64,000 nt of DNA, from assembly GCA_036721855.1 (NCBI GenBank), contig DAIMKF010000006.1, positions 758-64,757 of the forward strand. Reading direction: 5' to 3'. Below, in pieces: positions 41,101 to 51,452 of the stretch; positions within the stretch are counted from its first letter, which is position 1; each line of letters starts with the position of its first letter. Below the pieces are notes generated by a model. The model made no database searches. It was not told where the DNA came from and worked only from the letters and a program-made list of their open reading frames with translations. This DNA comes from Bacillota bacterium (GTDB taxonomy: Bacteria > Bacillota > DTU065). A program made the translations under genes and the position numbers.

Positions 41101-41727
41101 CTAAAAAGTAGTGGTGAGATAGGCACCGATTGATAGAGTATTGAAGTTTAACAGGCCAATATCTACACCCAAGTTACGGTTAAATTGCAATCTGCTGCCA
41201 ACATTAAAAACTGCAGGTGTATCTTTTAAGTTGCTGTTATCCCTAAATTCACCCATTATTGTAACTACAGGCAAAAGGGTTCCTGCCGGAGATACAGTTA
41301 CCGGGTTTAGGACAAAACTAATGCCACCAAAAAATCCACCGTAACTGCCCGTACCAAAACCAAAATGCCCTTTTAGACCTTTATTGGTCAGATTTTTACT
41401 TGTCACTCCATAAAAAGCAGAGCCTGTTGCTCCTACCGCAAAAGCAGGAAGTTCGGGAGTCTCTTCAATTAAGCGCCATTTGAAAAAGCCAACAAGTGGC
41501 CTGTTTATTGCTCCTGCTATACCAAGTTCAACATTATCAATAAAAGTAGCTTTGAGATTGGCATAAAAACTTCTATAGGTATAGCTGATGCCTAAACCTG
41601 CCAGGCCGGGCCTTGCTGTATCAGTTGTTGGTATAGTCAAAAGTCCTCTTGGACCTAGATAATTATCGGCCTGAGCCAGGAAAACACATAGCAAAAAGAT
41701 TATAAAGCCCAGTAAAAGTCGTTTCAC
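41101..41727 (-). CDS. Putative small outer-membrane beta-barrel protein
   Basis: Signal peptide (CVFLAQADN), Gly/aromatic-rich strands, C-terminal ...YLTTTF. 4-nt overlap with lpxD. Confidence 0.45.
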   Translation of the reverse strand: MKRLLLGFIIFLLCVFLAQADNYLGPRGLLTIPTTDTARPGLAGLGISYTYRSFYANLKATFIDNVELGIAGAINRPLVGFFKWRLIEETPELPAFAVGATGSAFYGVTSKNLTNKGLKGHFGFGTGSYGGFFGGISFVLNPVTVSPAGTLLPVVTIMGEFRDNSNLKDTPAVFNVGSRLQFNRNLGVDIGLLNFNTLSIGAYLTTTF

Positions 41728-42797
41728 TTGTCGTTATTCTCCCCTCGGTCAAGACAACTAGCTATACTATCCAGCTTTTTTGCTATTTCTTTTATTTCTT
41801 TACGTAGCTTAGGGAGTTCTTGGAGACTTGCTTTAATCCGGTAGTCTTTCCTATGATCCGTGGCCGGAATACCGCTTACAATCTGATTGTTATCTAAGTC
41901 TCCGTCAACTAAAGACTTGCTCATAATGCCACAGTCATCGCCAATCCTTTGTTGCCCGGCAAACATAACCTGCCCTCCCACTTTAACTCGTTGGCCCAAA
42001 GCGGTGCTGCCCCCCAGGCCAATCTGTCCTGCTAGTATACTATCTTGACCGATGTAGCAGTTATGTCCGACATGAGTCATATCGCCTAATTTAACTCCGT
42101 TTTCGATCACAGTAGGTCCGGCAGCTCCGGAGGCAATAGAGGTATTAGAAAATATTTCAACATCATCACCGATTATTACTCCACCAATTTGCGGTACCTT
42201 CTGCCAGCCCTTTTCAGTGTAAACAAAGCCAAAACCTTCTACCCCTATTAGAGCTCCGGGATGAATTTGTACTCGATCGCCGATTACAACATTTTCTTTG
42301 ATAACTACTTGTGGGTAAATTACACAGTCTTTGCCAATTTTACTACCGGGTCCCACAAAAACGCCTGGGTAAAGTACTGTATTATCACCGATCTGGGCAT
42401 CATTGGCAACAAAAGCATAATCATAGACAGTGACCTTTTCTCCTAAATGGGCTTGAGGTTCAATTGTGGCCTTGGGACTAATTAGACCATTATAAATCAC
42501 CTTACGTGCAAAAAGTGCCAACACCTCACTGAAAGCTTTTCTGCCATCTAAAACTATAATTCCATTAACTTGTAGATCTTGAAAATACTTTTCTTCGATA
42601 ATATAAGCTGAAGCTTTTTTTAAGGCAGCAATATCTCTGGCTTCTTTGCCCGCCACTAAAGTTATTGCCCCACTGCCTGCCTGAAAAATTGGAGCTACAT
42701 GCGAAATTAATACCGAGGCATCACCAACGATAGTTCCGCCTGTCAGTGCACATATATCCTTTAACAAAACCTCTTTTTGTGGTGGCGATAATCTCAC
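41724..42797 (-). CDS. lpxD: UDP-3-O-acylglucosamine N-acyltransferase
   Basis: N-terminal LKDICALTGGTIVGD, left-handed beta-helix hexapeptides, and the GHNCYIGQDSILAGQIGLGGS region. The GTG at 42797 has an AGGAGGG RBS; the ORF opens at 42815. Confidence 0.88.
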   Translation of the reverse strand: MRLSPPQKEVLLKDICALTGGTIVGDASVLISHVAPIFQAGSGAITLVAGKEARDIAALKKASAYIIEEKYFQDLQVNGIIVLDGRKAFSEVLALFARKVIYNGLISPKATIEPQAHLGEKVTVYDYAFVANDAQIGDNTVLYPGVFVGPGSKIGKDCVIYPQVVIKENVVIGDRVQIHPGALIGVEGFGFVYTEKGWQKVPQIGGVIIGDDVEIFSNTSIASGAAGPTVIENGVKLGDMTHVGHNCYIGQDSILAGQIGLGGSTALGQRVKVGGQVMFAGQQRIGDDCGIMSKSLVDGDLDNNQIVSGIPATDHRKDYRIKASLQELPKLRKEIKEIAKKLDSIASCLDRGENNDK

Positions 42798-42834
42798 CTT
42801 GCTCCCTCCTAGCAAGCTGCTTTATTTACAAACC

Positions 42835-44022
42835 TTATTTTATCTGGTTATTTTCTTGTCTGTTTAACAACAAAAGCAATTCTTCGGTTAAATCCACAGC
42901 ATTATTAGGGATCTTATCGACTAATATCCCCGGGCGACAACCTCTTTTTATGGCTAATACTTTTAGACCTTCGAGGCATTCTTGCTCAATCCTCTTTAGA
43001 AGTTTTTCCTTTTTTGTAAGCAAATTTGCCAATTGATTTTGCTGTTTTTCTTTAAATGCATTTAATAAAAGTAATCTCTGCTTCTGGGCACTACCATGTT
43101 CAATATTCTCCAATGCTCTTGCAAGCTCGCTGCGTCTTTTTTCTGCAGCTTGAACTTCTTTTGTCATTGCCTGTAAATAATAGTTTTCTTTCTCCTTATA
43201 AGTTATTTCGAGCTCTTTTTCTTTTTTAGCTAAACTATTTAGCCTGTTTACAAGCAAATCATCCAGTTCATTTTTTTGCTCTTCTTTTAGTTCAATAAGT
43301 CGCTGCTGCCATTCTTGTTGCTTTTTTTCCAGCTCTTTTTCCGGGTTAGCTTCTCCTTTAGTACCGACTTCGTTTCTGTTAACATCAGTTTGCTTATTCT
43401 TAAAGCCTATGTCGACCCTGATGGAATATCTTGCTTGTATTTCAGTAGAGTTTTGTCTTCTTTCAAGATAGGCTAACTCTTGTAAATACTGTTCTTCTTC
43501 CAAGGCAATTCGCCTTTGATATTTTTCTAAAATCTGCTTTTGGGCTTTTTCCAGTTCATTATGTGCTTCTCTTTGGAGATTTTCCTTTTCCAAAACCATT
43601 TCTTTGCGAATTTGTATGAGCAGATCATCTTTTAATTTAGCTACCGAATTAGTTACTAATTCCAACTGCTTACCCAAAAATTTCTGGGGATTTGCCGAAC
43701 TTGTTTGGCTCTCCCATTCTTGCAAGAGATCATCGTAGGCTGATTGCTCTATTGTTCTTGTAGCGATCTCTCGGGTTAGTTTTTCAACTTCAGGGTAAAG
43801 GGGATGCTTTTTAAGAGCACTGTCTCTAACTGCCACTGCTTGATAGTTTATTGTGTTTTCTTGATAAACAGTCTCTGATTTGGTTGTTTTTTGGGGCTTT
43901 AGAAGACCTGTTTGTTGCTTAAAAAGGTTTAATGAATCTTTGTTACTTATAAATCCCACTATACAACCGCAAATAAAAAGCCCGACTACAAAGTTCCAAC
44001 TCCATTTCCTTTGGCCAGTCAC
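42835..44022 (-). CDS. Membrane-anchored, greatly elongated OmpH/Skp-family paralog
   Basis: N-terminal TM (FVVGLFICGCIVGFI). The body-domain strands (YQAVAVRDSALKKHPLY; KVLAIKRGCRPGILVDKIPNNAVDLTEELLLLLN) parallel those of the adjacent Skp, separated by about 300 aa of E/K/Q-rich coiled coil. Confidence 0.5.
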   Translation of the reverse strand: MTGQRKWSWNFVVGLFICGCIVGFISNKDSLNLFKQQTGLLKPQKTTKSETVYQENTINYQAVAVRDSALKKHPLYPEVEKLTREIATRTIEQSAYDDLLQEWESQTSSANPQKFLGKQLELVTNSVAKLKDDLLIQIRKEMVLEKENLQREAHNELEKAQKQILEKYQRRIALEEEQYLQELAYLERRQNSTEIQARYSIRVDIGFKNKQTDVNRNEVGTKGEANPEKELEKKQQEWQQRLIELKEEQKNELDDLLVNRLNSLAKKEKELEITYKEKENYYLQAMTKEVQAAEKRRSELARALENIEHGSAQKQRLLLLNAFKEKQQNQLANLLTKKEKLLKRIEQECLEGLKVLAIKRGCRPGILVDKIPNNAVDLTEELLLLLNRQENNQIK

Positions 44023-44047
44023 AGACAGTCCTCCTTTCTGTTTGGTT

Positions 44048-44080
44048 AAGAAAAAGAGGATGGACCGGGCCCATCCTCTT
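44048..44080 (-). terminator. Rho-independent terminator after skp
   Basis: AAGAGGATGG gcccggt CCATCCTCTT TTTCTT on the minus strand. Confidence 0.7.
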
Positions 44081-44085
44081 TGGTC

Positions 44086-44559
44086 TTACTTAATCTTGGC
44101 ACCAGCCTGTATTACTGCCTCGGTTATATCAAAAGCAGGATTACCATAATAAACAACGCCAGCATCAATTACCGAACTTAGCCCTTTCTCCTGGGCCACT
44201 TTGCTGATTGTGGAAAGAAGCTGGTTTTGAGCATTTTGAAGTTTCTCATCGAGTTTCAGTTCAACAATGCGATCATTAAGATCTTGTTGATATTTCAAAA
44301 AGACTTCTTGCTTAGCATCGTCTTTCATGTTTTTTGTTTCCTTATCAAACTTATCCTGCATTTTTTGTGTTTCAACATCAATAGTTTTTTGGATATCAAC
44401 AATCGGCTTAAACTCTGAAGAAAGTCTCATAATATCAACATAACCAATCGGACCATTAGCGTTTTTATCAATAGCACCACCGATAAAAACAACTGAAAGT
44501 AATGCAACAACTGCAATAGCTGCAATGATAACTAAACGCCAATTTTTAATCTGTTTCAT
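44086..44559 (-). CDS. skp: Periplasmic chaperone Skp/OmpH
   Basis: Signal/anchor sequence, IGYVDIMRLSSEF, a helical arm, and C-terminal KVAQEKGLSSVIDAGVVYYGNPAFDITEAVI. Lies downstream of bamA. Confidence 0.75.
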   Translation of the reverse strand: MKQIKNWRLVIIAAIAVVALLSVVFIGGAIDKNANGPIGYVDIMRLSSEFKPIVDIQKTIDVETQKMQDKFDKETKNMKDDAKQEVFLKYQQDLNDRIVELKLDEKLQNAQNQLLSTISKVAQEKGLSSVIDAGVVYYGNPAFDITEAVIQAGAKIK

Positions 44560-44576: not shown

Positions 44577-46265
44577 TTAAAATGCCTGGCCTAAACTAAA
44601 GTAAAATTGGGACTTCCACTTTCCCTCTTCTTTGGTAAATCCGTAGTCGAGACGGATTGGGCCAATTGGTGTATTTATACGAATGCCAGGACCAAAACCT
44701 GTTTTAAAATTCGCCATATCAAAACCATTGTCCCATATTTGACCGGCATCTGCAAATAACACTAATTGAATCTGATCGGAAATAAGATAGCGATACTCAA
44801 GATTGCTTACAAGACGACGCTTACCGTCAAGTACACCAAACCTATAACCCCGAACGGTATCTGAGCCACCTAAATAATATTTCATATTCTCGGGTAATCT
44901 TTCATCGGGGGTAGTAACGACTCCACATTGAATATGTCCTGCTAAAACATGATTGCCAGCTTTATCAAGTTTAACGTATTTGGCCATATCAAAATCGTAC
45001 TTTTGGTAAGAATAGTTTCCACCCAATACCCTGCCCCCAAACTCTGTGAGCAATCTAATCCTTTGACCCTTACTTGGATAGAGGTAGTGGTTGGCATTGT
45101 CATAACTAAGTATAAACCCTAAACTACGTGTTTTCCAGTCAGTTAAGGTGTTTGTTGCTGACACTTTTTCCAAATTGTTATCTAAGGTGCCATTAACTGA
45201 TAAACGTAGATATTCTCCCAAAGGACGGCCAACTGATAAAGTAATTCCTTTGCGATCATCTTCTACATAGCTTCCATCGGCATTATCAATCTTTTGCTTA
45301 ATATAGTTAAGATCGACACCCAAAGAAGTTAAGCTCGAGCCTAAAAAAGGCTCGTAAAAACTTAAGCCAAGCATCCGCTTTTGTTTACCCAACTCGATCT
45401 TTGAGGATAACTTCTGACCATAACCAAAGAAATTGTCTTCTTGATATTGTAAATAACCGACAATACCATCAACAGAACTGTAGCCAAGGCCACCTAGGAT
45501 CTGACCTGATTTTCTTTCTTTGACATCGATAACCATAGTCTGTTCCATAGGTTTGTCGGTAGGCTCAAAGGAAATGTTCACTGAATCAAAGTAACCGGTA
45601 TTATAAAGTTTGCCATAAAGCTTTTCTAATTCGCCCTTTTTAGGAACATCACCTTTTTTAAGGGTTACATATCTTTTCACTACATTCTCTTTAGTCTTTT
45701 CCAACCCGGTAACTTTAACACCAGCGAGCTTAATTGTCACAAAGCTAATTTGAAATACATTGTTTTCATCTACAAAAGCATCGGCTGGTTCGATGTAGAT
45801 GCCGTAATCATTAGCTATACTTTCAATAAGTGCTTGTATCGTCTCTGAAGTTATTCTATTAATATTTAAAATCTCACCTACAGGTATATTTAACCTCTTG
45901 GCAATTTCGCTTGTAGGCACATCATCGACATCTAGCTTAATATTAACACCTTTAATAACCGGATTTTCTTCGAGTTTAAAATTGACTCTGATACCACCTA
46001 AATAAAACTTAGGTTCTACTTCCACAAAACTGAAAAAACCCATCTCGGTTATGGCCTTCATATCTTCCATCAACTTATTGTCATCGAGAGGTTCTCCAAT
46101 TTTTGTCGCTTTAATTACTTCTAAAATAGTAGCAGAGTCTATCTCCTGATTGCCAGAAACAGTTATCGAAGTAACAATAGCCTCCTCAGCGCTTCCAAAA
46201 CAAGATAAAGAAACAAAGAGGATGATTGCAATAAATATGCTAACAGAATTTTTCCTCCGAGTCAT
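44577..46265 (-). CDS. bamA: Outer-membrane protein assembly factor BamA (POTRA + Omp85 barrel)
   Basis: POTRA-like repeats (ITVSGNQEIDSATILEVI; IKGVNIKLD), an Omp85 barrel with YYLGGSDTVRGY, and C-terminal ...FYFSLGQAF. The ATG at 46265 has a GGGGG RBS. Confidence 0.85.
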   Translation of the reverse strand: MTRRKNSVSIFIAIILFVSLSCFGSAEEAIVTSITVSGNQEIDSATILEVIKATKIGEPLDDNKLMEDMKAITEMGFFSFVEVEPKFYLGGIRVNFKLEENPVIKGVNIKLDVDDVPTSEIAKRLNIPVGEILNINRITSETIQALIESIANDYGIYIEPADAFVDENNVFQISFVTIKLAGVKVTGLEKTKENVVKRYVTLKKGDVPKKGELEKLYGKLYNTGYFDSVNISFEPTDKPMEQTMVIDVKERKSGQILGGLGYSSVDGIVGYLQYQEDNFFGYGQKLSSKIELGKQKRMLGLSFYEPFLGSSLTSLGVDLNYIKQKIDNADGSYVEDDRKGITLSVGRPLGEYLRLSVNGTLDNNLEKVSATNTLTDWKTRSLGFILSYDNANHYLYPSKGQRIRLLTEFGGRVLGGNYSYQKYDFDMAKYVKLDKAGNHVLAGHIQCGVVTTPDERLPENMKYYLGGSDTVRGYRFGVLDGKRRLVSNLEYRYLISDQIQLVLFADAGQIWDNGFDMANFKTGFGPGIRINTPIGPIRLDYGFTKEEGKWKSQFYFSLGQAF

Positions 46266-46429
46266 TAACCTGCCCCCTAACAACATAGATCTCATACAGT
46301 TCTTAGCTTTAATTCTCGACCAGAATTATTATTCCTTCCCTTTAGACTCTATCACTTTGTGGGGTTACCTCCAACTAAGTATATTTGTCTTATTTTTTTA
46401 CCTAGCTGGTATTTCTTAGGAGATTAAAC

Positions 46430-46463: not shown

Positions 46464-49400
46464 TTAAAAATTGATACCAAACTCAATACCTATACGGAAT
46501 TCACCTTTATCATCCAATGAGGCGGTAAGCTTGGTTTGGGGCTTAATCCTATACTCAAGTTTCATCATCTCTTTGGCTTTGATCTCTAAAGTTCTGGAAT
46601 AGGTAAAATAGAGGTTTTCAAAAAGATATTTCCCTGCTTTGAATTTCATGGTTCTTTCCATAATGTTTGGCTCAAGTTTAAATTCGTCGAGCTTAAATGT
46701 TTCCTTCATAACATTTTCCACATCACCTAAAACAGTTGCTTCGATTTGGTTGGTGACAATTCTTAAGAGTTCCTCTGTTAAAGCTTGTTGAATATTACCT
46801 CCGGCAAAATTACTAAAGCGATGTAGAGTTAACTTGCGAATAATTTCGGTCTCGCTCATAGGTGGATCTGAGATGAGTGTTGTCCTGAGATCTCCTAGAG
46901 TTCCATTTACCTGAACTCTAATATCGGCACTTGGAAGTCTGGTTAAAGCCTCAGCAGATATTAGTGGTAAAACCCCTCGGTAACGCTGGAAGATCAGCTG
47001 TGCTTTGGTTATTTCAAAAACATTATCAAGATAATTAATATTACCCTCTGTAGCCTCAACTCTGCCATCTAAGCCTAGGTTATTTAAGGGTCCTGTAATT
47101 TGCACAGAACCTGTACCCTTAGCATTTAAACCTAGCCCTTTAACACGAAACTCACCTCTATGATCGACATTTAAATCGAGTGTAATCGGTAGCTTAACAT
47201 AAGATTGTGCTGACTTTTCTTCAAAAGCTGCTAGATTTACATCGGTATCTTCCATTTCAATTTGGCCACTTATTAGCGGTGCCTTTAGAGTTCCGGCTAT
47301 ACGACCTTTGCCTGTAATAACTGTTTTTACCAGTTCTGTTTTATATGGTATTTTTGTAACGGCATAAGTTATGGAAAGATCAGGATTGAGGTGTTCTAAA
47401 TAAATTACACCTCCTATTTTAGCGCTTCCCTGACCTACTTTGGCACTGACATTGTTTATCTCAGCCTTATTACCTAAAAAGATAACCTCTCCTGTTAAAT
47501 CATCAATAGATTCCAGATAAGAAGTATAGCTCAGCGAAGCATCTGTAAGGATAATCGAGCCATTGAATTGTGGTTTCTGCCAGTCGCCCGAGACATCGAC
47601 ATTCACTTTTAGCTGCCCTCTATTAAAAGCAATGCCTCTAAAGAGTCCATTTAATGAACTCAAGTTGCTCTTGGGAGAGCGAACAGACAACTTTAAGGGT
47701 AGTTTTTTACCACTTGGTTTATTTAAAAATTTTTCTATGATCTCTGGTTCATCCGGCCAAGGAATCGTTCCTGTTACACTCAGTTCGTTACCTTCTAAAC
47801 TGGCTCTAAATTCAGTAATTCTAATTCCCTGATTATCAATGGCAAAAGAACCCAAAAGCCCCTTAAGTTGAAGTTGTTCGTAGTTTAGATTACTGGCTTC
47901 TAATTCCAATTTACCTTTGAAATTTTCAAGACTGCCAGTAAGATTAGCCTTGAAGTTAACTATACCATCTAAATTCTGGCTAAAATTAAGTGCTGGCTTA
48001 ATATTTCTAAGATCAACATTTCTTCCCTGCATAGTCCAGTTCAGATTACCATTTTTATTGTAGTTTCCGGCTAAAAGAATATTTGACCCATTGACGGCTA
48101 AATTAGCCTCACTAACCTGCAAGACACCACCTTCATATCTAATTTTAGCGGCGAAGGTTGGCTGAATATCAGCAAGCATCCATGTTGCTTTGGTTAAATC
48201 TAAATTCAGATGTGGGTCATCTATGGACCCAGATATTTGTGCGGTAAAATTAGCCCAGATATTCTCGGGGAGTTTGTAGCCGGCAAAAGATGCTATTTTT
48301 TGCACATCTGCTCTAAGGGCAGTCAGCTCACCGTTGATTTCCTTTGTTTTGAGATCATACTTACCTTTGGTAGAGAACAACCCTTGACCCCATCTAATCT
48401 CCGAATTACTTATTAATAAGCACTGATTAGCTAAACTAAACAACCCGGCAATACCATCGATACGCTGCCCTAAAACGATGGCATCCTCAACAACAATTTC
48501 CCCTCTGATATTAGGATCTTTTATTGTACCTGTTATCCTGCCGCTGTAGCTAGCTAAACCATCTGCAAGATACTTTTTATAGTCATCAGGGTAAGGTAGA
48601 GTTTTTAGGGGAATTTTTTTCAGATTAAGTTGCAGATCCATTTGGCCTAAGGTATCAACACTGCCAAACACGGAAAAACTCCCACGATTAAATTCTCCTT
48701 TGCCTCGGGTTATTAATAAAAGGCCTTGATTATAGGTGAGAGAAGCAGCTATATTTTTAGTTTCCAAACCAAAGATATTAACCGGACCTTTGCTCAGATC
48801 TAATTTAATCAAGGGATCATCTAATGTACCTTCCAAGGATAGATCAGCACAAATAGAACCTGTTGCCCAATCTAAATACCCCAGAGGTTCTAAGATTTCA
48901 CCGATATCCTGGTCACGAATAGATAGAGCTAACTTCCCGGAAATCTTATCCTTTAGCTTAATAAATCCATGTATGCCGTGAGTTGAACCACTTAGACTTG
49001 AAAGATTTAAATTGATGAGATTGATTACTTCTGCCTTAGGATCACCATTTAAATTCCCGGAAAGCCTCTTAAATTTGATGTCTTTATAAGCTGGATGTAG
49101 CCAATCTATACTTCCACTTGCTAAAGGATTTGTAATAGAACCGTTAATCCTTAAAACTAAATCGATGCGGCCGCCTAGATCTTTTAGTTGAGGAACTAAA
49201 GCAACAAAAGCATTCGGTTCAAAAGAACTGATGTTTAAATCAAGGTTAAGTTGTTCGGTTTCATTTAGTGGCAGTATCCCTGAGAGAAAAATTTTGGCTG
49301 GATCTATTTCAGCCTGTAGCCCCTCTAATCCGACTTTACCATCGCGAAGATAAAAACCACCTTTGAGATTAGTTGCCTTAATATTTTCATAAACCAGTTT

Positions 49401-51452
49401 TGGTGTCTCTACATTACCAATTATTTCAGCCTTAGCTAAATTCCAATCTGATACCCTGGCTAAAAGTGATAAGTTAAGTTTGCCGTTTAGTTGGCTGGGA
49501 TCCAGGGGCATTTTCTCTTTTAAAGGAGGTATGGCAGTTAATACAGCCCCGGGATCTAAACCTGCAACATTAACCTCTAGGAAACTTTCACGATGAAGCT
49601 TCTCTTGAGGAAATAGAAGCTTTTGCAGATTATCCGGTAAGGTTAAAGCACCCTTGGCAGCTACATTGGCTCCCATAAACCCAGCTAAAAGATGCTCTAT
49701 TTCTACTACACCATTGGCCATTCTTCCGGATAAAACAAGGCCTTCATGATTATAACCCTCACAAGAACCGGGTGAGGCCTCAAGAGAATAAACGGCAAAA
49801 GGTTGATCATAAAATCCACCGATATTGGTATTTAGATTGATAGTTCCGGTAGCTTTAAAGCCAGAATGCTTTTTACTAATTGTTGCCAGAGCCAGTTTAT
49901 CTACCTTTAACGCTAGATTAAGGTAGGGCTTGGCCAGTACATCTTCAATATTACCAGAGATATTAAAAAAACCGGTTTCCGCTTTACCTGTAACCGAAGT
50001 TATCTCCACATTACCATCTTTATAACTTACCAACCCACCCACATCAGTTAATGGAAAAGCCAAATCAGGATGATTGATAGTTCCGCCATTGATATTTAGA
50101 TCACCACTGATAGATAGCTGAGAAAGGTAACCGGAAACAATAATCCTACCCTTAAAAAGGCCTTGAAGAGAAATATCTTCCAGCCAGTCAAAGTTCTTGC
50201 TATATTTCTCTGGATAACTATTTGAGTGGGGAGAAACCATGTTGTTATAAACAGCATAATAACGGTCATAGAGATCTGCTTTTAAATAACCTTCAGCTAA
50301 ATTTAACTCGCCTCTTTCCAAATCAACCTCTGCAAACAACCGCGGATCAGACCAACCTCCTGCTGTATACCCTTTGGTTATAAACTTGGAATTATCTATT
50401 TGACCTGCCCCACTCCAACTCTCCAGACCTTGATCACTATATTTTACCGTGCCGGATAGATCTTGGACCGGTAAAGGTACCAAATAAGATCTAAAATCCA
50501 CGCCCTTTAGATTAGCTTCCCCTTGAAACTCCAGATAGCCGTTTTTATATACCAGATTAGTTTTGGCATCGACTCGGCCGTTATAAAAATCCAAGCCTAA
50601 ATTAGGTGCTATCCAGTAGTTAAATTCAGTAGGATCTAAATTATAGGTGTCAACTTTTCCTGTCCATTCAGCAGTTTTTAAATCCACAATAATTTTCCCG
50701 TCGACTTGATAAAAACCAGTCTGACTTTTATTTTTAGGTAACCACTCATAAGGCCATTTGGCAATATCCCAACCTGTAATAGGTAGCGAGGCTTCGCCTT
50801 GAAAAGAAATATCAGCTTTGTTATCGCCTATAATCACTGCTTTAGCATTAATTGTTTTGCCCAGATAGATCTGGTTTATATCCATATAAGGCATCCCTTT
50901 AAATGATACCCTGCCTTGTCTTACATAAAGAGGTATGCCTTCGGGTATTGATGTAGTTTGATAATTTTCATTTGAACGCATAAGATCGAAAAAATTCCAC
51001 GCGTTTGAATCTTTGTAATACTCCAGGTTAACAACCGGCTGATATAGAGTAATACTTTCAAGGCCTTTTAAATAATTGCCTTGACAAAATAACAGCTTTA
51101 TAAGGCTATAGTCGATAGTTACTTTCTCAACCTTGAAAAAAGGTTGGTTGTTCTTTTTAAGTTTCTCATCTATCCCAGACTGTTTTGACGGACCTATCAC
51201 TAAATCATGTACCACTAAGCGATGTAAAAAATCCGGAGCTAGTGAACCTATTTCAACATCTCTAGATAAATTATTCTCCAAGATTTTAGTTATTTGGGTC
51301 TTTATATTAGCAGTTATTGATTTTTGATTGAGAACCAATATTACTCCTAAATTAACCAACAATAATAAAGCTAAGATGATGCCAAGGGTGATAAACACGG
51401 CCCTGGCAACAGGATGAGTAATAACTCTGTTTGTCTTTTTTTGTACCGACAT
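46464..51452 (-). CDS. tamB: TamB/AsmA-like translocation-and-assembly-module protein (DUF490 C-terminus)
   Basis: 1662 aa. N-terminal signal-anchor, very long repetitive beta-rich sequence, C-terminus ...KLEYRIKPQTKLTASLDDKGEFRIGIEFGINF. Immediately upstream of bamA. Confidence 0.75.
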   Translation of the reverse strand: MSVQKKTNRVITHPVARAVFITLGIILALLLLVNLGVILVLNQKSITANIKTQITKILENNLSRDVEIGSLAPDFLHRLVVHDLVIGPSKQSGIDEKLKKNNQPFFKVEKVTIDYSLIKLLFCQGNYLKGLESITLYQPVVNLEYYKDSNAWNFFDLMRSNENYQTTSIPEGIPLYVRQGRVSFKGMPYMDINQIYLGKTINAKAVIIGDNKADISFQGEASLPITGWDIAKWPYEWLPKNKSQTGFYQVDGKIIVDLKTAEWTGKVDTYNLDPTEFNYWIAPNLGLDFYNGRVDAKTNLVYKNGYLEFQGEANLKGVDFRSYLVPLPVQDLSGTVKYSDQGLESWSGAGQIDNSKFITKGYTAGGWSDPRLFAEVDLERGELNLAEGYLKADLYDRYYAVYNNMVSPHSNSYPEKYSKNFDWLEDISLQGLFKGRIIVSGYLSQLSISGDLNINGGTINHPDLAFPLTDVGGLVSYKDGNVEITSVTGKAETGFFNISGNIEDVLAKPYLNLALKVDKLALATISKKHSGFKATGTINLNTNIGGFYDQPFAVYSLEASPGSCEGYNHEGLVLSGRMANGVVEIEHLLAGFMGANVAAKGALTLPDNLQKLLFPQEKLHRESFLEVNVAGLDPGAVLTAIPPLKEKMPLDPSQLNGKLNLSLLARVSDWNLAKAEIIGNVETPKLVYENIKATNLKGGFYLRDGKVGLEGLQAEIDPAKIFLSGILPLNETEQLNLDLNISSFEPNAFVALVPQLKDLGGRIDLVLRINGSITNPLASGSIDWLHPAYKDIKFKRLSGNLNGDPKAEVINLINLNLSSLSGSTHGIHGFIKLKDKISGKLALSIRDQDIGEILEPLGYLDWATGSICADLSLEGTLDDPLIKLDLSKGPVNIFGLETKNIAASLTYNQGLLLITRGKGEFNRGSFSVFGSVDTLGQMDLQLNLKKIPLKTLPYPDDYKKYLADGLASYSGRITGTIKDPNIRGEIVVEDAIVLGQRIDGIAGLFSLANQCLLISNSEIRWGQGLFSTKGKYDLKTKEINGELTALRADVQKIASFAGYKLPENIWANFTAQISGSIDDPHLNLDLTKATWMLADIQPTFAAKIRYEGGVLQVSEANLAVNGSNILLAGNYNKNGNLNWTMQGRNVDLRNIKPALNFSQNLDGIVNFKANLTGSLENFKGKLELEASNLNYEQLQLKGLLGSFAIDNQGIRITEFRASLEGNELSVTGTIPWPDEPEIIEKFLNKPSGKKLPLKLSVRSPKSNLSSLNGLFRGIAFNRGQLKVNVDVSGDWQKPQFNGSIILTDASLSYTSYLESIDDLTGEVIFLGNKAEINNVSAKVGQGSAKIGGVIYLEHLNPDLSITYAVTKIPYKTELVKTVITGKGRIAGTLKAPLISGQIEMEDTDVNLAAFEEKSAQSYVKLPITLDLNVDHRGEFRVKGLGLNAKGTGSVQITGPLNNLGLDGRVEATEGNINYLDNVFEITKAQLIFQRYRGVLPLISAEALTRLPSADIRVQVNGTLGDLRTTLISDPPMSETEIIRKLTLHRFSNFAGGNIQQALTEELLRIVTNQIEATVLGDVENVMKETFKLDEFKLEPNIMERTMKFKAGKYLFENLYFTYSRTLEIKAKEMMKLEYRIKPQTKLTASLDDKGEFRIGIEFGINF

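Follow-up and report, generated by a model that had tools for sequence, protein, structure and literature searches.

Skp (OmpH/HlpA; PF03938; E. coli structures 1SG2 and 1U2M) is the closest described counterpart of the protein analysed in this study. Its protomer consists of three strands, which form a nine-stranded barrel in the trimer, and one two-helix coiled-coil arm (PMC7577714). A gene for a much longer protein of this type was identified in a stretch of 64,000 nucleotides (referred to as the window in the following) from a Bacillota bacterium of the lineage DTU065 (assembly GCA_036721855.1, contig DAIMKF010000006.1, positions 758 to 64,757). This long gene codes for 395 amino acids and is located between skp and lpxD, within the cluster for outer-membrane biogenesis of this diderm Firmicute. 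We assign a probability of roughly 0.6 to the explanation that its product is a highly diverged member of a conserved, anchored 'long Skp' subfamily of Skp/OmpH and acts as an inner-membrane-tethered holdase for outer-membrane proteins.

For Negativicutes and Halanaerobiales, 'three copies of Skp' were described in the outer-membrane cluster (Antunes 2016, PMC5007114), and in Veillonella parvula the three genes are vpar_0528-30 (Poppleton et al. 2017, PMC5491611). Vpar_0529 is listed as an 'Uncharacterized protein' with no COG and with one predicted transmembrane helix. It was detected by proteomics with an intensity of ~6.7e7 (6.8e8 for Vpar_0528; 1.25e9 for the lipoprotein Skp Vpar_0530), which is ~10-19 times lower than the values of its two neighbours (PMC5491611 supplement). 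In the literature searched, no paper describing the long arms or the anchor was found; the gene is either counted among the 'three Skp copies' or listed as uncharacterised.

The long gene shares with Skp/OmpH/HlpA its position after bamA and before lpxD. Further similarities are the predicted split body, in which one N-terminal strand and two C-terminal strands with a final helix enclose an antiparallel helical arm, the C-terminal A...G...D-(I/L)-T motif and a proline residue about 11 residues past the first strand. The differences concern the arms, which are predicted to comprise ~124-133 residues per helix, whereas those of Skp have roughly 35-45, and the N-terminus, where an uncleaved anchor and a disordered tether are found instead of a cleavable signal peptide. 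Moreover, the long protein carries a conserved motif at the tip of the arm, and its sequence is too diverged for PF03938.

With the middle gene of the 'three Skp' block, the long gene has in common the slot between a short Skp and lpxD and the membrane anchor, and the equivalents in other families are full-length homologs. In contrast to this block, the family represented in the window possesses no third Skp, and the long copy is directly followed by lpxD; the tip loop is longer and the OmpH signal is weaker. In the block published as 'three Skp copies', the long gene is the one in the middle, which is unusually diverged in the window, and Vpar_0529 would be its ortholog according to position and annotation. 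A first-pass annotation, made from the letters of the window, had regarded the gene as a giant paralog of Skp. It is not specific to one lineage but belongs to an orthologous group located beside skp in all Skp-bearing genomes sampled, which corresponds to the middle one of the known 'three copies of Skp' (PMC5007114, PMC5491611).

Homology to Skp and predicted fold

The relationship to Skp became apparent in profile-profile comparisons (hhalign) including the long proteins that occupy the same slot in other families. The family profile aligned with these proteins end to end (columns 57-395, 308 columns; probability 97.6, P=4.7e-12), and the long same-slot proteins in turn matched 19 short Skps over the C-terminal 55 columns (probability 95.6, P=1.1e-8). 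Three of them score 20-31 bits on PF03938 over the C-terminal part. A merged long profile (16 sequences with the 395-aa protein as master) gave two separate, non-overlapping and collinear matches to Skp, namely C-terminus on C-terminus (P=1.7e-7) and N-terminus on N-terminus (P=4.4e-7, membrane helix included). With the membrane helix removed, the C-terminal piece (residues 320-395) matched mature Skp with a probability of 96.7 (P=4e-10; reversed control 0.23). The N-terminal piece (residues 52-110) gave P=2.5e-4 (probability 43) with mature Skp and P=1.3e-5 (probability 80) with the N-terminal piece of Skp; this match falls on the beginning of mature Skp, and the controls were 0.25 (reversed Skp) and 0.08 (C-terminal piece of Skp). 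Over all comparisons, the controls amounted to 0.23-0.25 for reversed Skp and 0.08-0.17 for the wrong half.

In addition, a plain hidden Markov model (HMM) of the long subfamily matched the neighbouring short Skps (E=1e-10 to 1e-6). The residues D377 and T379, which are nearly invariant in all long homologs, correspond to the D-I-T motif of Skp. At the level of sequence profiles, the C-terminal homology to Skp is solid, and the N-terminal homology, which is found at the right place, appears moderately supported.

The structure of the monomer was predicted twice with AlphaFold2 (AF2). Run 1 was based on a family alignment of 7 sequences (predicted local distance difference test, pLDDT, 79.1; predicted template modelling score, pTM, 0.59) and run 2 on the merged alignment of 16 sequences (pLDDT 81.3, pTM 0.59). 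Both runs agree on a helix at residues 9-26, disorder from ~34/38 to 56, a strand at 61-65, helices at 76-104, 112-199/208, 227-305/308 and 312-360, strands at 363-368 and 375-377 and a final helix at 379-393. One N-terminal and two C-terminal strands and one two-helix antiparallel arm were found in the models. The predicted topology is that of the Skp protomer, with arms of ~124 and ~133 residues, which may extend over ~18 nm if the helix segments are collinear, a geometry read from DSSP strings and not from coordinates.

The helical stretch between the two halves of the body (residues 76-359) comprises ~284 aa, compared to ~70-90 aa for its counterpart in the local Skp (~300 and ~90 aa in the first-pass annotation). 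The N-terminal strand stretch (AVAVRD...HPLY) and the C-terminal stretch (LKVLAIKRG...VDLTEELL) show the highest conservation among the soluble parts of the family. The tip motif Y199-S-I-x-V-D-x-G206 is invariant within the family, and h-N-L-x-L-K-L is found at the aligned tip position in other lineages. The tip loop itself was predicted with a pLDDT <50 (run 1, residues 201-224; run 2, residues 210-224).

A tandem fusion of two Skps, in which YSIxVDxG would represent a second first strand, was also considered. It appeared solely as a non-significant alternative of hhalign (probability 9.9, P=0.003) and was rejected, because the lengths of the helices pair better as one long hairpin.

Several results weigh against Skp ancestry. 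The 395-aa protein had no match at E<=10 in Pfam and NCBIfam, and OmpH (PF03938) was matched by none of its 7 close relatives, i.e. by none of the 8 family members including the target. Artificial splices of the N- and C-termini reached at best 13.8 bits on this model (E=0.07; gathering score 32.4 bits). The hhalign comparison of this family alone with Skp was marginal (probability 25.6, P=7.4e-4, C-terminal columns), and the N-terminal match is modest. In HMM searches of the PDB sequences, nothing was found with the family profile, and with the subfamily profile E. coli Skp appeared at E ~0.7-0.8 among apolipoprotein noise. The Foldseek comparison of both models with the PDB gave no match at E<=0.001, and Skp was not among the best 50 matches listed. 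Strand pairing and arm geometry were derived from DSSP strings only, and the composition of the arms is the same as that of any charged coiled coil. All of the top 50 Foldseek matches are long helical hairpins of a generic kind (from Tc toxins, SMC arms and ClyA-type toxins); since the arms dominate this comparison, it says little on the small head.

These observations restrict the resemblance that exceeds chance to the profile-profile level. The protein could thus be an anchored coiled coil unrelated to Skp, whose terminal motifs resemble those of Skp by convergence or composition bias, as the missing Pfam and NCBIfam matches and the missing sequence or fold match to Skp in the PDB would suggest, and as coiled-coil profiles readily draw spurious matches (e.g. 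apolipoproteins). This is, nevertheless, very improbable. The two ends of the protein are matched, in collinear order, to the corresponding ends of Skp, which is not the case for the reversed controls, and the columns that match belong to the body motifs outside the coiled coil (A...G...D-x-T). Same-slot intermediates reach 31 bits on PF03938, the AF2 models show a three-strand head, and throughout the sample the long gene co-occurs with skp and adjoins it. Skp ancestry is favoured because of the end-to-end homology to the same-slot proteins, the profile matches to both ends of Skp and the predicted Skp topology. The claim of the first-pass annotation that the two ends mirror the halves of the Skp body stands in part: the quoted stretches exist, transitive profile-profile matches to Skp were obtained at both ends and three strands are predicted, but the direct PF03938 match by which it was to be verified is missing in the protein, its 7 relatives and the splices.

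Membrane anchor, arm length and distribution of the long homologs

The N-terminal transmembrane helix noted in the first pass was recovered as the hydrophobic segment of residues 9-26, which is preceded by R5/K6 and contains residues invariant within the family (F11, L15, F16, G19 and G23). A cleavable signal peptide as in soluble Skp is not indicated, as the helix lacks an AxA site and its residues are invariant. An obligatory lipoprotein anchor at Cys20 was rejected as well; one or two orthologs possess no Cys, and the hydrophobic residues run on past Cys20. Because the Cys is missing there, the anchor was interpreted as a membrane helix and not as an obligatory lipobox. A plain membrane helix is present in at least 22 of 28 long homologs and a canonical lipobox in 2; judged from these sequences, anchoring is conserved among the long homologs, its chemistry is not.

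The distribution was investigated by six-frame searches of 41 related genomes and, for the subfamily HMM, in a sample of 201 genomes of the phylum. The 395-aa protein was found in 6 of the 41 genomes, all of the same family and always in the order bamA-skp-X-lpxD, and the orthologs in the 5 other family genomes occupy the same slot at 31-71% identity. A phmmer search against 1.84 billion representative proteins yielded 6 proteins only, all of this family, and word-indexed searches revealed almost no further relatives. The family genomes are metagenome-assembled genomes of uncultured Bacillota, e.g. DTU065 and UBA4881. DTU065 represents a class that forms the sister group of Limnochordia within Firmicutes_G (PMC11456536).

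In other families of the phylum, skp is directly followed by an open reading frame (ORF) of ~290-470 aa, usually then by a second short skp and lpxD, and some of these frames show weak OmpH matches. The same slot (skp1-X-skp3-lpxD) encodes an anchored protein of 311-613 aa. At the eight other-family loci retrieved for comparison, all long proteins start with a membrane anchor; long proteins of other families carry a motif of the type h-h-D-x-x-x-h-x-x-H-P-x-(Y/W)-x-E, and G...D-(I/L/V)-T-x-x-(V/L) is found at their C-terminus. H73, P74, D377 and T379 show almost no variation among the 16 sequences of the subfamily, and all signature motifs of the subfamily are present in the protein of the window, i.e. 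HP after the first strand, the alternating hydrophobic motif ending the ascending arm and the C-terminal D-x-T.

Among the 41 genomes, 14 contain a Skp that exceeds the Pfam cut-off, and in precisely these 14 the subfamily HMM detected a long homolog (one in each); the subfamily profile matched 36 of the 201 genomes. In the two-membraned members sampled, the long protein constantly accompanies skp and bamA, and the long-armed anchored Skp is a conserved part of the outer-membrane assembly cluster in the sampled Skp-bearing genomes and not unique to the window.

One long homolog (L046 2983-3849, G022:C83) has only 289 aa and ends before the C-terminal body, and the HMM match crosses one TAA; this copy may be degenerating or have been truncated. 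In a flagellar operon, an anchored coiled-coil protein of 193 aa is encoded between FliJ-like and FliK-like genes (L066 1878-2459, G000:C1); its weak PF03938 six-frame match (20 bits) was judged to be coiled-coil noise. The source genome of the window contains one canonical Skp only, and its other weak PF03938 matches are likewise noise. The third short, lipoprotein-type Skp, which precedes lpxD in most other lineages (e.g. L043, L044, L045 and L047), is absent from all 6 family genomes.

Across 28 long homologs, between 44 and 258 residues (anchor and tether) precede the HP motif. Some long homologs (L052, L058, L059 and L062; 496-613 aa) have 166-258 residues before this motif, much of them Pro/Ala/Gly/Ser-rich and of low complexity, and arms of the usual length. 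In 19 of the 28 homologs, 128-131 aa separate the HP motif from the tip motif of the ascending arm (range over the homologs 95-131); a comparison of arm lengths had been suggested in the first-pass annotation. The lengths of the ascending and descending arms co-vary (r=0.74, n=27, with lineages that are not phylogenetically independent), which fits an antiparallel hairpin. The tip loop comprises 28-30 aa in this family and 19 aa in most others.

A constant arm length in homologs from distant families, compared with a tether of 44 to 258 aa, looks like a distance constraint. It could be explained by a trans-periplasmic bridge, in which the anchored trimer would span the distance from the inner to the outer membrane and dock with its tip on the POTRA domains of BamA, a SonA-like barrel or TamB, thereby forming a fixed conduit without diffusion; a periplasm-spanning cage or conduit that feeds BamA/TamB had been suggested in the first-pass annotation. 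The tip motif, which does not vary within the family and is of a conserved type in the different lineages, would suit such docking, as would the tight synteny with bamA and tamB. According to the models, tether, body and arms could come near to the width of the periplasm, and the Lpt and Mla systems of diderm Firmicutes are bridges as a rule (PMC10665443). Three splayed arms of 18 nm would, however, have to cross the peptidoglycan mesh, and the tip loop was predicted at low confidence. We therefore consider the bridge a possible but unlikely explanation.

A structural function has to be weighed as well. The arms are acidic to neutral with ~35-40% charged residues, which is typical of a rigid rod, and the long protein might be an envelope rod of Skp ancestry that has lost client binding and sets or senses the periplasmic spacing or organises the envelope, comparable to Lpp or the OmpM stalk. 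The extreme divergence from Skp, which makes the protein invisible to the Pfam model, and the constant arm length would be in line with this, as would the fact that the family lacks the third Skp and keeps one canonical Skp. Yet the body motifs used by Skp for trimerisation are the best-conserved part, and the arms cannot be told apart by composition from those of the local canonical Skp; neither arm charge nor arm hydrophobicity discriminated between a chaperone and a rod. Neither a peptidoglycan-binding nor an SLH domain is present, and linkage is strict to bamA and skp and not to tether genes. An OmpM-type protein with an SLH domain or a C-terminal porin barrel is also not indicated, as no Pfam domain was detected and the AF2 model contains no barrel. 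A mere rod is thus improbable.

Gene order and putative attenuation in the cluster

All genes of the cluster in the window are located on the minus strand; it comprises tamB, bamA, skp, the long gene and lpxD, in this order, together with two small genes of barrel-like type, lptF/G and an lptD-like gene. The slot between bamA and lpxD is the one known for Skp/OmpH. The coordinates of the individual features are compiled in Table 1. The neighbour that had been designated Skp in the first-pass annotation scored well above the Pfam cut-off. A GGAGG-type site precedes the equivalent start in every family ortholog of the long gene.

Table 1. Features of the long gene, its product and the neighbouring genes in the window.
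Feature	Coordinates	Strand	Description and basis
Long anchored Skp-like gene	42835..44022	-	395 aa, GTG start, TAA stop 42835-42837; ORF and translation
Ribosome-binding site AAAGGAGG	44030..44037	-	7 nt before GTG; read from sequence
Terminator-like hairpin with U-tract	44045..44081	-	Between skp stop and long gene; 11-13 bp G+C-rich stem
skp, canonical	44086..44559	-	157 aa; PF03938 51.8 bits, E=1.3e-13 (cut-off 32.4)
bamA	44577..46295	-	572 aa; Omp85 barrel PF01103 184.5 bits, POTRA PF07244 64.6 bits
lpxD	41724..42815	-	Immediately downstream of long gene; Hexapep and LpxD domains
tamB	46464-51452	-	Outer-membrane biogenesis cluster
N-terminal membrane anchor, residues 9-26 WNFVVGLFICGCIVGFIS	43945..43998	-	AF2 helix 9-26; no canonical lipobox or AxA site
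Low-confidence linker, residues 27-58	43849..43944	-	pLDDT <50 for 34-56
N-terminal half of Skp-like body (predicted)	43798..43848	-	Strand 61-65 (AVAVR), short helix, HP motif H73, P74
Ascending arm (predicted), residues 76-199	43426..43797	-	Helices 76-104 and 112-199/208, kink 105-111; AF2 pLDDT mostly 85-96
Tip region, residues 200-226	43345..43425	-	Directly after motif Y199-S-I-x-V-D-x-G206; loop poorly predicted
Descending arm (predicted), residues 227-359	42946..43344	-	Helices 227-305/308 and 312-359/360, kink ~306-311; AF2
C-terminal half of Skp-like body (predicted)	42838..42945	-	Strands 363-368, 375-377, helix 379-393; invariant A357, D377, T379

The canonical Skp of the window (44086-44559) starts with a hydrophobic segment of 22 residues (LVIIAAIAVVALLSVVFIGGAI) with only a weak candidate cleavage site (GGA|I). 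It may also be membrane-attached.

A hairpin with its stem at 44053-44081 follows skp and is kept in 5 family genomes (the window, L002, L004, L005 and L006) with compensatory changes in the stem; the fold energies of this region range from -23 to -39 kcal/mol. The conserved hairpin and U-tract suggest that read-through into the long gene and lpxD is attenuated. Together they probably act as an attenuating terminator, which would set the expression of skp well above that of these two downstream genes. This accords with the lower abundance of the product of the middle gene in Veillonella.

Unlike several other lineages, the window contains no SonA-like POTRA barrel between bamA and skp (PMC13018214). 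An ORF of 420-431 aa is located between bamA and skp1 elsewhere (L044 4593-5852, L045 904-2196, L046 1052-2341 and L048 848-2140). According to position and size, it probably encodes the SonA-type POTRA barrel described for Acetonema.

Proposed function of the long Skp

With its N-terminus inside and a single membrane helix, the rest of the long protein should face the periplasm. A disordered tether of ~30 aa would join the anchor to a Skp-type body of one N-terminal and two C-terminal strands and a final helix. Between the two halves, a kinked antiparallel hairpin of ~124 + 133 residues would extend, with the family-invariant YSIxVDxG at its tip. As in Skp, the protomers would probably trimerise via a nine-stranded barrel, and the trimer would resemble a jellyfish that is tethered to the inner membrane and has arms of up to ~18 nm. 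The protein is probably a tethered holdase of low copy number, which would take over outer-membrane proteins freshly emerging from the Sec translocon and hand them to soluble Skp and BamA.

A functional analogy may exist to PpiD and YfgM at the Sec translocon of E. coli (PMC2956729), which also combine a single N-terminal anchor with a periplasmic chaperone domain and are placed to meet proteins leaving Sec. Their folds are unrelated to that of the long protein (parvulin/SurA-like and TPR, respectively); the analogy would be functional only.

A further-reaching and rather doubtful possibility, to which we give slightly less weight than to the bridge as such, is that an anchored trimer with Skp fold occurs in all diderm Firmicutes and perhaps in other Terrabacteria. 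Its ~18-nm arms would then serve as a periplasmic ruler, and the tip would dock on BamA, SonA or TamB, thus forming a trans-envelope delivery station. If this is true, it would be for proteins what the Lpt and Mla bridges are for their substrates and would replace the model of a diffusible chaperone in these lineages.

To our knowledge, diderm Firmicutes possess no BamB-E lipoproteins, and the route taken through the periplasm by their outer-membrane proteins is unknown. The long Skp adjoining bamA is a concrete candidate for the missing link between the Sec translocon and BamA. As Veillonella parvula is genetically tractable and has the gene in the same position, the hypothesis is directly testable. 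Furthermore, the gene in the window shows how far a protein with an OmpH fold, if this assignment is correct, can drift beyond the reach of the Pfam model.

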